Assembly (NCBI RefSeq): GCF_048403405.1
Contig: NZ_CP183129.1
Reading direction: 5' to 3' (one strand)
DNA length: 64,000 nucleotides
Origin: Escherichia coli
Lineage (GTDB): Bacteria > Pseudomonadota > Gammaproteobacteria > Enterobacterales > Enterobacteriaceae
This document shows, one piece after another, positions 47,748 to 50,623 of this stretch. Position 1 is the first letter of the stretch. Each line of letters starts with the position of its first letter. The notes below the pieces were generated by a model. The model worked only from the letters and a program-made list of their open reading frames with translations. It was not told the origin of the DNA and did not search any database. The position numbers and the translations under genes are program-made.

Positions 47748-47790
47748 TTTGCCGGATAATATAAAAAGTTATCCGGCAAATTATTTTTTA
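47748..47790. terminator. bidirectional terminator between yggM and TRAP permease gene
   Basis: tttgccggataa / ttatccggcaaa stem followed by ttatttttta. Confidence 0.55.
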
Positions 47791-49089
47791 CATTAGCCCT
47801 AGTAGCTGTGGAATGAACAAGGATATTTGCGGGATGTAAGTGATCATCATCAACGCGATTAACAATGCGGCATAAAATGGCAGCAATGGTTTGATCAAAT
47901 GTTGAATCTTCACACCTGAAATAGAACAACCAACAAATAGCGCACTACCCACCGGCGGTGTTAACAGCCCAATACAAAGGTTGGCCACCATCATAATACC
48001 GAAATGTACCGGATCCATTCCCAGCTCTTGTGCAATCGGCAAGAAGATTGGTGTGAAGATTAGTACAGCCGGTGTCATGTCCATAAAGATGCCGACAATT
48101 AATAAGACGATATTAATCAGCAGCAATATGATCAGTGGGTTATCAGAAATCCCCATCAACGCGTCGCTGATCATATAAGGAATATCAGCATTGGTCATTG
48201 ACCAGGACATGCCCACGGAAAAACCGATCAACAGTAATACAATCGAAGTGGTAACAACCGATTCCAGAATCAGTTTGGGTAAATCGCGCCATTTTACTTC
48301 CCGGTAAATCAGCACCGAGAGAATAAATGTGTAGACAACGGCAATCGCAGACGCTTCAGTTGCGGTAAAAATGCCGCCCAGAATGCCGCCCATTACAATG
48401 AACACCAGAAGCAAACTTGGTAAGGCATCCAGAAACGCTTTACAGGCCTGAGCAAAGGTTGCTCTTTCTGAAAGTGGGTAGCCACGGCGTTTAGCAATAA
48501 TGCCGCAGACTATCATTACCGCAAGACCCATTAAGATCCCTGGCAAATATCCCGCCATAAATAGCGATGCTACAGAAACGCCGCCAGCTGTCAGGGAAAA
48601 CACAATTAACACGTTTGAGGGCGGTATCAGTAATCCAGTAATACAGGATGAGACGTTTACAGCGGTAGAAAATGCCGGATCATAACCTTGTTTGGTCTGA
48701 ATGGGATTCAGTGTGCCACCAACGGCAGCAGCTGCCGCAACGGCTGAACCAGAAATGGAACCAAACATCATATTCGCCAGGACGTTCACATGACCAAGTG
48801 AACCAGGAACGCGGCCAACCATTACCTGGGCGAGGTTAATCAAACGTATCGCAATACCGCCGCTGTTCATCAGCGTTCCGGCAAAGATGAAAAAGGGGAT
48901 TGCCAATAGGGCAAAGTTATCCAGTCCATTAGCCAGTCGCTGCGAAACAGTGATTGCCGCGATATCCCAGGGAAACATCAACAGCATTGAAGCTACAGTG
49001 GCAATACCGATTGAGAACGAAATGGGCACACCAATAAAGACCAGCACAAAAAAACAGCCAAATAGTGTAAGCGCAATATAACTATCCAT
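47788..49089 (-). CDS. TRAP transporter large permease subunit (DctM family)
   Basis: 433-aa polytopic membrane protein, overlaps small permease gene by 1 nt. Confidence 0.8.
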   Translation of the reverse strand: MDSYIALTLFGCFFVLVFIGVPISFSIGIATVASMLLMFPWDIAAITVSQRLANGLDNFALLAIPFFIFAGTLMNSGGIAIRLINLAQVMVGRVPGSLGHVNVLANMMFGSISGSAVAAAAAVGGTLNPIQTKQGYDPAFSTAVNVSSCITGLLIPPSNVLIVFSLTAGGVSVASLFMAGYLPGILMGLAVMIVCGIIAKRRGYPLSERATFAQACKAFLDALPSLLLVFIVMGGILGGIFTATEASAIAVVYTFILSVLIYREVKWRDLPKLILESVVTTSIVLLLIGFSVGMSWSMTNADIPYMISDALMGISDNPLIILLLINIVLLIVGIFMDMTPAVLIFTPIFLPIAQELGMDPVHFGIMMVANLCIGLLTPPVGSALFVGCSISGVKIQHLIKPLLPFYAALLIALMMITYIPQISLFIPQLLGLM

Positions 49090-49601
49090 TAACTGGCCTC
49101 CTGCGCAGGTTGTTTCAGTTGTTGAATGCTTTGATTAATAAAACACAAGGCATAAAACATCATCACCACTCCACTTAATGGCAGAATGATATATACGTAT
49201 CCCATCGGTATTTGCATCGCGGCAGATACTTGTGATGTTGCCAGCGTTTTATCAATTAATTTCAGGCCACCAGTCACAATGACCGAACCGGCAAAACCTA
49301 AAATGAGAATGTTAATGACTATACTAAGAAGTAATTGCTTGCGCTTATTCAGGGCGAGAGCAAATAAATCGATAGAGAGATGTCTCTGCGCGCCGACGGT
49401 ATATGCAGCACCTAATAATCCTACCCAGATCATCAAAAAGCGTGCCAGCTCATCGGTTAATGTACTTGGCTGGTTAAGTACGTAGCGGCTAAATACTTGC
49501 CAGACTACGCATACAACCAGAGCAAGCATTACGGCGACAGAAAACGCGGCAATGACGCGGTCTACCGCAAGTTTCAGGCGGTTAAATATCATTGTAAGCA
49601 T
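49089..49601 (-). CDS. TRAP transporter small permease subunit (DctQ family)
   Basis: 170 aa, four TM helices, between DctP and DctM genes. Confidence 0.75.
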   Translation of the reverse strand: MLTMIFNRLKLAVDRVIAAFSVAVMLALVVCVVWQVFSRYVLNQPSTLTDELARFLMIWVGLLGAAYTVGAQRHLSIDLFALALNKRKQLLLSIVINILILGFAGSVIVTGGLKLIDKTLATSQVSAAMQIPMGYVYIILPLSGVVMMFYALCFINQSIQQLKQPAQEAS

Positions 49602-49636
49602 CCTGGAAAATCAGGGCCAGAGACTGGCCCGAAATA

Positions 49637-50623
49637 TTATTGAGCAGCGTTGTCGAATTTCTCTAACAAAGCAGCTTGTTTTGGATCTTTTTTGAAGTCG
49701 TCAAACAGAGGTTGAACTGCGGCACGGAATGGGGCTTTATCAACCTTAACGATTTCACCACCCATAGCTTTCGCTTGAGCACGTGTGTCAGCGTCAATTT
49801 TTTCCCACAATTTTTGTTGATAAGCTTCGGATTTCTTCGCCGCTGTTTCGAGGATTTGTTGCTGTTCTGGGGTTAATTTATTCCATGTTTTGGTGGAGAT
49901 AACCAAAAAGTCAGGAATTGAGGCATGTTCATCTTCAGAAAAGACTTTGGCAATTTCGATATGTCGAGTCTGCACCCAGGAAGGCACGTTATTTTCTGCG
50001 CCATCTACTACACCTTGCTGCATCGCAGTATAAACTTCGCCAAATGAAATTGGAGTGGGTGAGCCACCCATCAGTTCAATCATTTTGATGGTGGTCGGGC
50101 TTGGCTGAACACGAATTTTCAGCCCTTTAAGATCTTCTGGCTTAGTAATCGGTTTTTTCGCATAGAAACTGCGTGTACCCGCTACATAAGCTGATAAAGC
50201 AAAAAAGCCTTTATCTTTTGTTGAATCCATAATTTCTTTACCAACTTCACCAAAAACCACTTTGTTGAAGTGCGCCTGATCTTTAAATAAGAACGGCAAA
50301 TTATAGATAGCATAAATATTATCAAAAGACTCCAGATCACTGGCGGAACCTTTGGTCATATCCAGTGCACCATTTTGCAACAACTCCATAGTTTCTCGCG
50401 CATTACCCATCTGGCTGCTGGGGTAAATACGGATCACCATATTACCTTTTGACAGCTGTTTTACTTCTTTCGCCAGCTTTTCAAAACTCTGATGTACAAC
50501 ATGACTTCTTTCCAGGTTGTGTGCTAACTTTAACGTCACTTTTTCTGCGGCGTTTACGCCAGTGCTAACCAGAGCCAGCAAGGATGCGCAGACTAATGAG
50601 CGGGTAAATGACCTCATTTTCAT
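49637..50623 (-). CDS. TRAP transporter substrate-binding protein (DctP family)
   Basis: 328 aa with signal peptide, first gene of the operon. Confidence 0.8.
   Translation of the reverse strand: MKMRSFTRSLVCASLLALVSTGVNAAEKVTLKLAHNLERSHVVHQSFEKLAKEVKQLSKGNMVIRIYPSSQMGNARETMELLQNGALDMTKGSASDLESFDNIYAIYNLPFLFKDQAHFNKVVFGEVGKEIMDSTKDKGFFALSAYVAGTRSFYAKKPITKPEDLKGLKIRVQPSPTTIKMIELMGGSPTPISFGEVYTAMQQGVVDGAENNVPSWVQTRHIEIAKVFSEDEHASIPDFLVISTKTWNKLTPEQQQILETAAKKSEAYQQKLWEKIDADTRAQAKAMGGEIVKVDKAPFRAAVQPLFDDFKKDPKQAALLEKFDNAAQ

Follow-up and report, generated by a model that had tools for sequence, protein, structure and literature searches.

YiaMNO is the 2,3-diketo-L-gulonate TRAP transporter of Escherichia coli K-12, and an Enzyme Function Initiative screen yielded the binding proteins Bpro_3107 (4MHF), Apre_1383 (4N91), Bamb_6123 (4N15), 4N8Y and 4X8R. 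The uronate binders of this screen come from Beta- and Alphaproteobacteria and from Firmicutes, and are often encoded beside uronate catabolic genes. Another described system, STM3169–STM3171 of Salmonella Typhimurium LT2, is a three-gene dctPQM operon that no catabolic genes adjoin and that is proposed to act beside the permease ExuT, feeding the uxu/uxa pathway. Its binding protein STM3169, for which 4N15 served as the model, falls in the uronate-binding group, carries a conserved Arg/Arg/Asn triad and binds D-glucuronate with a Kd of ~0.2 µM (Herman et al. 2020, PMC7660916).

We analysed a stretch of 64,000 nucleotides of E. coli DNA (hereafter the window), which carries a dctPQM operon that resembles the Salmonella system in the following respects: three genes without adjoining catabolic genes, a binding protein of the uronate-binding group with the same triad, and a proposed role beside ExuT. 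DctP also has in common with the Enzyme Function Initiative uronate binders the carboxylate-binding arginines and the asparagine of an AENN motif, whereas its link to catabolism is a predicted regulatory one rather than one of gene neighbourhood. YiaMNO has the same three-subunit architecture but is a different family member with a different locus and substrate, as DctM scores 296 bits against a YiaN equivalog cut-off of 800 and DctQ scores 38 bits against a YiaM cut-off of 260.

The published intact mass of STM3169 (35,741.96 Da) does not match that of a tag plus the mature form of the Salmonella homologues compared. The Salmonella proteins encoded at the hemW locus, which are 90% identical, come from S. 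enterica assemblies other than the species representative. We take LT2 ansB to be STM3106 from the gene numbering, which would place STM3169 at another locus. A TRAP region described in a comparative paper on BEN2908 was also considered as the same locus, but it includes extra regulators and enzymes and cannot be equated with the operon described here.

The reading that we consider likely is that the window holds an ancestral, ExuR-controlled hexuronate TRAP importer that has been retained here and lost in K-12, and that IS1 arrived beside it later.

A TRAP operon between hemW and yggM

A preliminary description of this DNA had placed a TRAP operon between yggM and hemW, and dctP, dctQ and dctM open reading frames are indeed found there on the minus strand. 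The operon, its flanking genes and the hairpins returned by a scan for terminator-like structures are as follows.

46725-47732, plus strand: yggM (DUF1202), the left flank
47748-47780, no strand assigned: hairpin with REP-like arms GCCGGATAA...TTATCCGGC in the convergent gap between yggM and dctM
47788-49089, minus strand: dctM, large membrane subunit of 433 aa (PF06808, TIGR00786)
49089-49592 (RefSeq-style start, 167 aa) or 49089-49601 (ATG at 49601, 170 aa), minus strand: dctQ, small membrane subunit (PF04290)
49614-49630, minus strand: G+C-rich hairpin GGGCCAGTCTCTGGCCC followed by a T-rich run in the gap between dctP and dctQ
49637-50623, minus strand: dctP, periplasmic solute-binding subunit of 328 aa (PF03480, TIGR00787)
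51687-51712, minus strand: terminator-like hairpin of hemW
51715-52851, minus strand: hemW, the right flank

The three genes are contiguous (47788-50623), and the dctQ stop codon overlaps the dctM start codon in the sequence ATGA. Profile matches assign each product to its family: DctP to PF03480 (E=9e-85) and TIGR00787 (286 bits; cut-off 175), DctQ to PF04290 (E=1.5e-30), and DctM to PF06808 (E=3e-121) and TIGR00786 (473 bits; cut-off 268). Orthologues of dctQ carry the annotation of a 504-nt 'TRAP transporter small permease', and the signal peptide of DctP, predicted by eye, ends in ...VNA, just before AEK. By its gene content, the operon encodes every subunit of a tripartite ATP-independent periplasmic (TRAP) importer, for which transport itself is predicted.

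The hairpin at 47748-47780 is likely to serve as a bidirectional terminator for the convergent genes yggM and dctM. That at 49614-49630 is a possible partial terminator, which would raise the ratio of binding protein to membrane subunits. The terminator-like hairpin that follows hemW implies that dctPQM has its own promoter. Rfam and tRNA scans found nothing.

Probable loss of an ancestral operon from K-12 and other E. coli

The preliminary description had given yggM and hemW as neighbours in K-12 and had taken the operon to be strain-variable, and genome comparison bears out both statements. In MG1655, a REP-like spacer of 154 bp separates hemW (b2955) from yggM (b2956), and the alignment of the window to K-12 ends precisely at the stop codons of both genes (47732 for yggM and 51715 for hemW). 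Among 5,426 complete E. coli genomes, 1,492 (27.5%) carry the operon and 3,910 have an empty site like that of K-12; by synteny, therefore, the operon is not a feature of most E. coli genomes. When K-12 is compared with the operon-carrying B1 strain 97-3250, the 14 nt after the yggM stop codon are common to both, beyond which K-12 has REP sequence and 97-3250 has TRAP DNA, a junction that we read as the footprint of a deletion. This comparison of the left breakpoint places the beginning of TRAP-specific DNA ~15 nt past the yggM stop.

The same description had read this difference as an insertion, a direction that the wider family does not bear out. The gene order hemW-dctPQM-(yggM/ansB)-yggN occurs in Citrobacter (5 species), Kluyvera (7), Klebsiella (7), Pseudocitrobacter, Phytobacter and Pluralibacter, as well as in another member of the Enterobacteriaceae and in Escherichia sp. 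MOD1. No fewer than eight other genera of enterobacteria have the operon directly downstream of hemW, as do some Salmonella enterica, certain assemblies of which have an identical gene order that includes yggM. Compared with Salmonella, Citrobacter, Klebsiella and Kluyvera, dctP, dctQ and dctM show 72-82% nucleotide identity, and the flanking genes hemW, rdgB, ansB and yggT show 78-83%. Among E. coli lineages, identity is 97.6-98.4% for the operon and 97.5-98.1% for ansB, yggM and rdgB. The G+C content of the operon is 42-46%, compared with ~52% in most of the genes around it; yggM, a core gene next to the operon, likewise has just 44%.

Conserved synteny, together with divergence that matches that of the flanking genes, sets the polarity as ancestral presence followed by loss in E. 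coli. Thus, this comparison shows that dctPQM has occupied the hemW-yggM/ansB interval of Enterobacteriaceae since ancestral times and has been kept here. By the same comparison, K-12 and ~72% of sequenced E. coli have lost the operon, and REP elements occupy its former place.

Within Escherichia, the operon could have been re-acquired by homologous recombination instead of purely retained, because the orthologue search gave no match in the genomes that represent the species E. albertii, E. fergusonii and S. enterica. In this alternative, an old presence/absence polymorphism persisted, the E. coli ancestor or many lineages were without the operon, and some regained it from other Escherichia by allelic replacement through the hemW and yggM arms, which would mean a gain in this lineage, yet one with no insertion of the IS or island type. 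The patchy distribution among the example strains named here fits such exchange: K-12, LF82 and an O157-like strain are empty, whereas B1 strains of EHEC type, some ETEC and others carry the operon. The 3′ end of hemW is likewise unusually polymorphic in E. coli (82-98% identity, with differences that are nearly all synonymous), and its haplotypes are not strictly tied to the presence of the operon, a pattern that reads as a signature of recombination. However, the operon has diverged among E. coli lineages to the same extent as neighbouring core genes, as expected for co-inheritance, and the empty allele of K-12 type has its left junction in common with the operon-carrying allele. We therefore consider regain unlikely; it is, moreover, compatible with ancestral presence in the family, and the two are not mutually exclusive.

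Substrate evidence for DctP

The nearest PDB relatives of DctP are 4OVR, 4N15/4N17, 4LN5, 4MHF/4MIJ, 4X8R, 4N91, 4N8Y and 4XFE (E values of 1e-68 to 1e-59), and the best solved binding protein is 39% identical to it. The nine PDB sequences with the best scores comprise 12 entries, of which five are linked to uronates by published work. Specifically, 4N91 and 4MHF bind glucuronate (and galacturonate) and 4N15 is the modelling template for STM3169 (PMC7660916), while the ligand is galacturonate in 4N8Y and glucuronate in 4X8R (PMC11668362). Binders of C4-dicarboxylates or sialic acid did not rank near the top PDB matches of DctP.

The preliminary description had proposed a substrate prediction from pocket residues. 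Residues R151, R171 (within KIRVQ) and N211 of DctP align with the ligand-contacting Arg/Arg/Asn of these PDB relatives, the two arginines with conserved arginines of 4MHF, 4N15 and 4OVR. In STM3169, the residues that contact the ligand are Asn35, Gln36, Glu74, Arg150, Arg170, Asn210 and Asp237 (PMC7660916). By residue numbering alone, N36, R151, R171, N211 and D238 of DctP fit this list at an offset of 1, and Gln36 and Glu74 do not fit at that offset. An AlphaFold2 model of DctP, built with 16 close homologues aligned, is poor (mean pLDDT of 47.5).

On the strength of these relatives and of the aligned triad, we infer that dctPQM is probably a high-affinity importer of glucuronate and/or galacturonate. 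Specificity within TRAP transporters can nevertheless shift at ~39% identity.

Predicted control by ExuR

The interval upstream of dctP contains every block that is conserved between genera, as defined from an alignment of 19 orthologous upstream regions.

50624-50790, minus strand: promoter/operator region between IS1 and dctP, with the conserved blocks (GCGCACAAAA, TGTGA and two operators)
50681-50697, no strand assigned: second, weaker TGTnnnACA site AATTTGTCGCACAAAGC, 21 bp downstream of the first (score of 7.0)
50702-50718, no strand assigned: operator of ExuR type, AAGTTGTCAGACAGGTT as read on the minus strand, with its centre 87 nt before the dctP ATG

A position weight matrix (PWM) for ExuR, derived from published sites (PMC4494728 supplement), gives its highest score in the entire 64-kb window, 18.5, at 50702-50718, and the next match scores 13.3. 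Known K-12 ExuR sites (exuT, uxaC and exuR) score 17.7-22.1 on the same matrix. The operator core TTGTCTGACA/TGTCAGACA also matches the operators published for uxaB in E. coli and in E. fergusonii (PMC4494728 supplement).

Similar sites recur at constant positions in related genomes. Nearly all of the Enterobacteriaceae orthologues scanned have an ExuR-like site between about -76 and -90 that ranks first or second among their matches, with some scoring just 9-11. The proximal site lies at -55 to -79 in enterobacterial orthologues, and the equivalent sequence ATGTCATACAG is kept in other genera. Orthologues in Edwardsiella, Mangrovibacter and Enterobacillus have the proximal site only, and the 60%-identical homologues of Aeromonas and Pantoea have an ExuR-like site at -103.

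The operator of dctP thus fits the consensus of the hexuronate regulon of ExuR/UxuR (exuT, uxaCA, uxaB and exuR) as well as the K-12 operators do, and dctPQM is probably a member of the ExuR regulon. Unlike those genes, its membership is predicted, and the operon is apparently absent, judged by the proximity of locus tags alone, from the ExuR sites published for K. pneumoniae, C. koseri and Enterobacter in the lists consulted.

Several other elements were considered in the same interval. The sequence AAATTGGTTAACC was considered as a box of UxuR/PdhR type, but is specific to E. coli and not conserved in other genera, and by the matrix the operator falls on the TGTCAGACA core next to it. A CRP site upstream of dctP is unconvincing, with conservation limited to a TGTGA half-site. 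A scan of the IS1-dctP interval with a simple sigma-70 consensus returned no promoter.

The transporter might instead carry a different organic acid, such as D-galactonate, some other aldonate or keto-acid or, in line with the generic name DctP, a C4-dicarboxylate, with another regulator of the FadR type acting on the ExuR-like sites. Identity of ~39% to uronate-binding structures leaves room for this, the TGT-N3-ACA core is common to motifs of the FadR subfamily (PMC4494728), and D-galactonate produced a thermal shift with STM3169 (PMC7660916). The candidate regulator DgoR is rejected, however, as its matrix scores 4.4 here and 21 on a true site, compared with the ExuR score of 18.5. The match of the operator core to uxaB operators likewise argues for ExuR, and the uronate-linked entries among the top 12, with no C4-dicarboxylate binder near them, point to a hexuronate. 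We accordingly give a different substrate or regulator only a modest chance.

Proposed model and implications

If the operon encodes an ExuR-controlled hexuronate importer, its operation can be outlined as follows. DctP would capture a carboxylate-bearing sugar acid in the periplasm, most likely D-glucuronate and/or D-galacturonate, and would hand this ligand to the DctQ/DctM membrane unit for import driven by an ion gradient, as both steps are known from the family. Transcription would start beyond the hemW terminator, at a promoter that belongs to the operon itself, and would be repressed, probably by ExuR or its paralogue UxuR, through the tandem operator centred ~87 and ~66 nt upstream of dctP. 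The transporter would then serve as a high-affinity scavenger beside the ExuT permease, supplying the uxa/uxu pathway.

The main value of the analysis is a correction of polarity, in that K-12 is derived at the hemW-yggM locus. Because K-12 represents the derived state, its gene order misleads when used as an 'ancestral' reference for this interval. In addition, one predicted member joins the ExuR regulon. The understanding of TRAP transporters and of IS1 is unchanged, and the locus is a case of ordinary pan-genome variation with its direction corrected.

If the predicted function is true, about a quarter of E. coli (among them many B1 strains of EHEC type and some extraintestinal strains) would have a second, high-affinity route for hexuronates from host and diet that K-12 does not have. 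Such a route might help cells to compete in the gut, where glucuronides release glucuronate, and would be a counterpart to STM3169 of Salmonella, a system that has been implicated in survival in macrophages. A more speculative proposal, which we put forward with considerable doubt, is that the hemW-yggM interval holds a long-lived presence/absence polymorphism of an ExuR-controlled, high-affinity importer of glucuronate/galacturonate under balancing (niche-dependent) selection in E. coli and Salmonella enterica. Its footprint would be the exceptionally deep synonymous diversity at the 3′ end of hemW, and the transporter would affect colonization of the gut or host in the ~27% of E. coli that keep it.

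IS1 is a later insertion

The preliminary description had also linked the operon to an adjacent IS1. The element is real, and its features are as follows.

50782-50790, no strand assigned: left copy of the target-site duplication, GTACATGTT, 9 bp
50791-51558, minus strand: IS1, 768 bp, with terminal inverted repeats at 50791-50813 and 51536-51558 and insA/insB open reading frames
51559-51567, no strand assigned: right copy of the target-site duplication, GTACATGTT, 9 bp

Matching genomes annotate the element at 50791-51558 as an IS1 transposase. Its insA and insB frames are co-directional with hemW and dctPQM, and it lies 167 nt upstream of the dctP ATG. The suggested connection with operon gain fails, given that IS1 has its own 9-bp duplication and a rare junction. 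Strain 97-3250, which carries the operon and is free of IS1 here, has an uninterrupted site with one copy of GTACATGTT and contiguous intergenic sequence. The exact junction occurs in only 2 other genomes, compared with the 1,492 that carry the operon, and the window contains one IS1 only, the sole IS1 ends being those listed. The borders of the operon show no tRNA, no integrase reading frame and no significant flanking direct repeats. Thus, as judged from its junctions, IS1 is a recent, lineage-specific simple insertion that is later than and unrelated to the operon and did not bring it in.

The notion that the operon entered the yggM-hemW interval of this strain or lineage as foreign DNA, possibly mobilized by IS1, could appeal to its absence from K-12 and most other E. 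coli, to a G+C content below that of its flanks and to the adjoining element, but it is already largely refuted, and in our estimate very improbable, in view of the same-interval operons in at least eight other genera and Salmonella, the divergence equal to that of flanking genes, the single IS1 with its own duplication and rare junction, and borders free of tRNA, integrase and direct repeats.

The insertion left the conserved promoter/operator block attached to dctPQM. In another strain, EC24, the operon has been removed by an IS1-mediated deletion.

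The operon and its distribution in E. coli

Three contiguous open reading frames (ORFs), all on the minus strand at 47788–50623, encode proteins that Pfam and NCBIfam assign to the DctP, DctQ and DctM families with scores far over the curated cut-offs, and the set shows every testable hallmark of a TRAP transporter. These genes differ from yiaMNO of K-12, an assignment we rejected on equivalog scores that fall far short of the cut-offs. The locus contains the following features.

46725–47732, plus strand: yggM, convergent with dctM
Between dctM and yggM: bidirectional hairpin (terminator-like scan)
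47788–49089, minus strand: dctM, ORF of 433 aa whose start overlaps the dctQ stop
49089–49592 or 49089–49601, minus strand: dctQ, ORF
Between dctP and dctQ: hairpin (terminator-like scan)
49637–50623, minus strand: dctP, ORF of 328 aa with a signal-peptide-like N-terminus
50791–51558: IS1, delimited by its terminal inverted repeats
3′ of hemW: terminator-like hairpin (terminator-like scan)
51715–52851, minus strand: hemW, upstream of the operon and co-oriented with it

Given the hairpin that follows hemW, dctPQM should have its own promoter.

In K-12 MG1655, hemW and yggM are neighbours separated by a 154-bp spacer of REP-like palindromic units. Alignment with the window runs to the yggM stop codon and resumes at the hemW stop codon, and no sequence in between aligns; this confirms the preliminary description of the locus and the K-12 gene order given there. 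The operon segment (3.07 kb) is matched in 1,492 of 5,426 complete E. coli genomes, with at least 80% query coverage in 1,461 of them, and only one of the 1,506 matching places lies off the chromosome. At ≥80% coverage, 3,910 genomes match the K-12 empty junction, and the two states jointly cover nearly all of the set. The operon is thus variable among strains, as had been proposed, rather than present in most E. coli including K-12. Carriers include B1 EHEC-type strains, ETEC, APEC and assorted human isolates. K-12, LF82 and an O157-like strain are empty, with REP content that varies (154, 64 and 242 bp, respectively).

The K-12 alignment also breaks at 56018–56124, where 106 bp in the window stand against about 175 bp in K-12, probably a further minor difference in intergenic or REP sequence.

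Retention and loss

The preliminary description read the operon as an insertion. A synteny comparison upholds its absence from K-12, but other genera carry the operon at the same site. We scanned the binding protein against one genome per bacterial species and placed the neighbours of each of the 44 resulting loci by tblastn. The order yggT-yggU-rdgB-hemW-dctP-dctQ-dctM-(yggM and/or ansB)-yggN is kept in Citrobacter (5 species), Kluyvera (7), Klebsiella (7), Pseudocitrobacter, Phytobacter, one other Enterobacteriaceae and Escherichia sp. MOD1, with a small rearrangement in Pluralibacter; two Salmonella enterica assemblies have the identical arrangement, yggM included. The operon lies at other loci in Buttiauxella, Edwardsiella, Mangrovibacter and Enterobacillus.

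Levels of divergence support vertical descent of dctPQM. Its genes share 72–82% nucleotide identity with the Salmonella, Citrobacter, Klebsiella and Kluyvera copies, and hemW, rdgB, ansB and yggT are 78–83% identical in the same comparison. Among E. coli lineages the operon is 97.6–98.4% identical, versus 97.5–98.1% for ansB, yggM and rdgB. Furthermore, the 14 nt after the yggM stop codon (GTTTGATATAGTGC) are common to the K-12-type empty allele and the B1 allele carrying the operon; beyond them lies REP sequence in the former and the TRAP terminator hairpin in the latter. Together, synteny, divergence and this common left junction indicate that dctPQM is an old resident of the hemW–yggM interval and the K-12 state a loss, the reverse of the direction first proposed. 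Scans for ORFs, tRNAs and repeats revealed no tRNA, integrase or flanking repeat at the operon, and its sole island-like trait, a G+C content of 42–46% versus about 52%, is common to yggM.

The gene yggM itself differs from genus to genus: Citrobacter has no yggM between dctM and ansB, the copies in Klebsiella, Kluyvera and Phytobacter are only 34–38% identical, and that in Escherichia sp. MOD1 reaches 94%, against 98–100% for the neighbouring genes.

The binding protein of the Salmonella enterica hemW–yggM copies is 90% identical to the window DctP, and the S. enterica representative gave no match in the one-genome-per-species scan; presence/absence polymorphism may also occur in Salmonella. 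The system of STM3169, the D-glucuronate TRAP binding protein of Salmonella Typhimurium LT2, is presumably a separate copy at another locus, judging from LT2 numbering.

Short contigs deposited as Collinsella, Bacillota and Alicyclobacillaceae metagenome-assembled genomes carry hemW/TRAP DNA that is 99–100% identical to the window at the protein level; this is almost certainly E. coli sequence that was mis-binned or entered as contamination.

The adjacent IS1

IS1 has the same orientation as the operon, lies 167 nt upstream of the dctP ATG and is bounded on both sides by its own 9-bp direct duplication (GTACATGTT); in strain 97-3250 the sequence is uninterrupted and contains these 9 bp once. 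An IS1 end occurs nowhere else in the 64-kb window, and only two other genomes, MS 69-1 and B19695, share the exact left junction; these are also the sole full-length, 100%-identical matches to the window. These observations mark IS1 as a late arrival, and its proximity, which had been taken as consistent with insertion of the operon, as coincidental.

In E. coli EC24 (NZ_CP182191.1 861774–867906), IS1 has taken the place of all of dctPQM together with the 3′ portion of yggM, a gene that bears a partial-pseudogene annotation there; the 133 bp upstream of dctP are retained. We interpret this as an independent, IS1-mediated loss; if anything, IS1 would promote loss here, not gain. Independent insertions elsewhere in the hemW–dctP spacer, which is about 310 bp long and very AT-rich, are found in the unrelated genomes E01, 21AR0173, AREA_492 and FDAARGOS_536, suggesting a local IS1 hot spot.

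The right end of IS1 and its flank form a predicted near-consensus sigma-70 promoter (51545–51573, plus strand; TTGGCA, 17 nt, TATAAT; 11/12 matches) that faces away from the operon and would read into the hemW terminator and 3′ end in the antisense direction.

Predicted substrate and regulation

The best solved relatives of DctP are 4OVR, 4N15/4N17, 4LN5, 4MHF/4MIJ, 4X8R, 4N91, 4N8Y and 4XFE (E-values 1e-68 to 1e-59), which rank clearly above sialic-acid, C4-dicarboxylate and other binders. Among these, 4N91 binds D-glucuronate, 4MHF binds glucuronate/galacturonate, and 4N15 served as the template for modelling STM3169, the glucuronate-binding protein from Salmonella (PMC7660916); the structures 4N8Y and 4X8R contain bound galacturonate and glucuronate, respectively (PMC11668362). 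Identity to the best PDB match is only 39%. The ligand-holding residues, two arginines (R151 and R171) and one asparagine (N211), are conserved. By best-hit and key-residue criteria, DctP would belong with the uronate-binding TRAP proteins.

The upstream region offers what appears to be independent evidence on function. An alignment of 19 orthologous regions upstream of dctP reveals a block conserved between genera, with IS1 just outside it; the block holds two TGT-N3-ACA sites at a spacing of 21 bp. With a weight matrix built from ExuR sites (PMC4494728 supplement), the best match in the whole 64-kb window is 50702–50718 (score 18.5; next 13.3), and the known K-12 operators of exuT, uxaC and exuR score 17.7–22.1. 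An ExuR-like site at the same position ranks best or second-best in nearly all Enterobacteriaceae orthologues scanned, and the homologues of Aeromonas and Pantoea, which are 60% identical, have one at −103.

We infer both substrate and regulator from sequence, and the best-supported reading is that DctPQM would be a high-affinity hexuronate importer that complements the permease ExuT and is repressed by the hexuronate regulators ExuR/UxuR. Both hexuronate TRAP systems and the loss of accessory genes are already familiar, and the locus is a case of ordinary differential gene loss to which a reasonable prediction of function can be attached. A literature search found no paper on this E. coli locus.

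DgoR was rejected as a regulator, as an enterobacterial DgoR matrix scores only 4.4. The 19-region alignment also contains two more motifs shared across genera (window about 50722–50790). One, GCGCACAAAA, lies about 150 nt upstream of dctP, at a distance of only about 8 nt from the IS1 end; the other is an invariant TGTGA about 107 nt upstream, which could represent a CRP half-site.

Polymorphism of hemW

Within E. coli, hemW is far more polymorphic than its neighbours (the full-length gene of the window shares 93% identity with that of K-12), chiefly in its last 237 nt (51715–51951), which are 82–98% identical among eight strains. Nearly all of these differences are synonymous, with the C-terminal 39 residues identical save one or two substitutions. 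This pattern suggests a long recombination history or old haplotypes around the TRAP indel. The hemW haplotypes do not strictly track TRAP presence.
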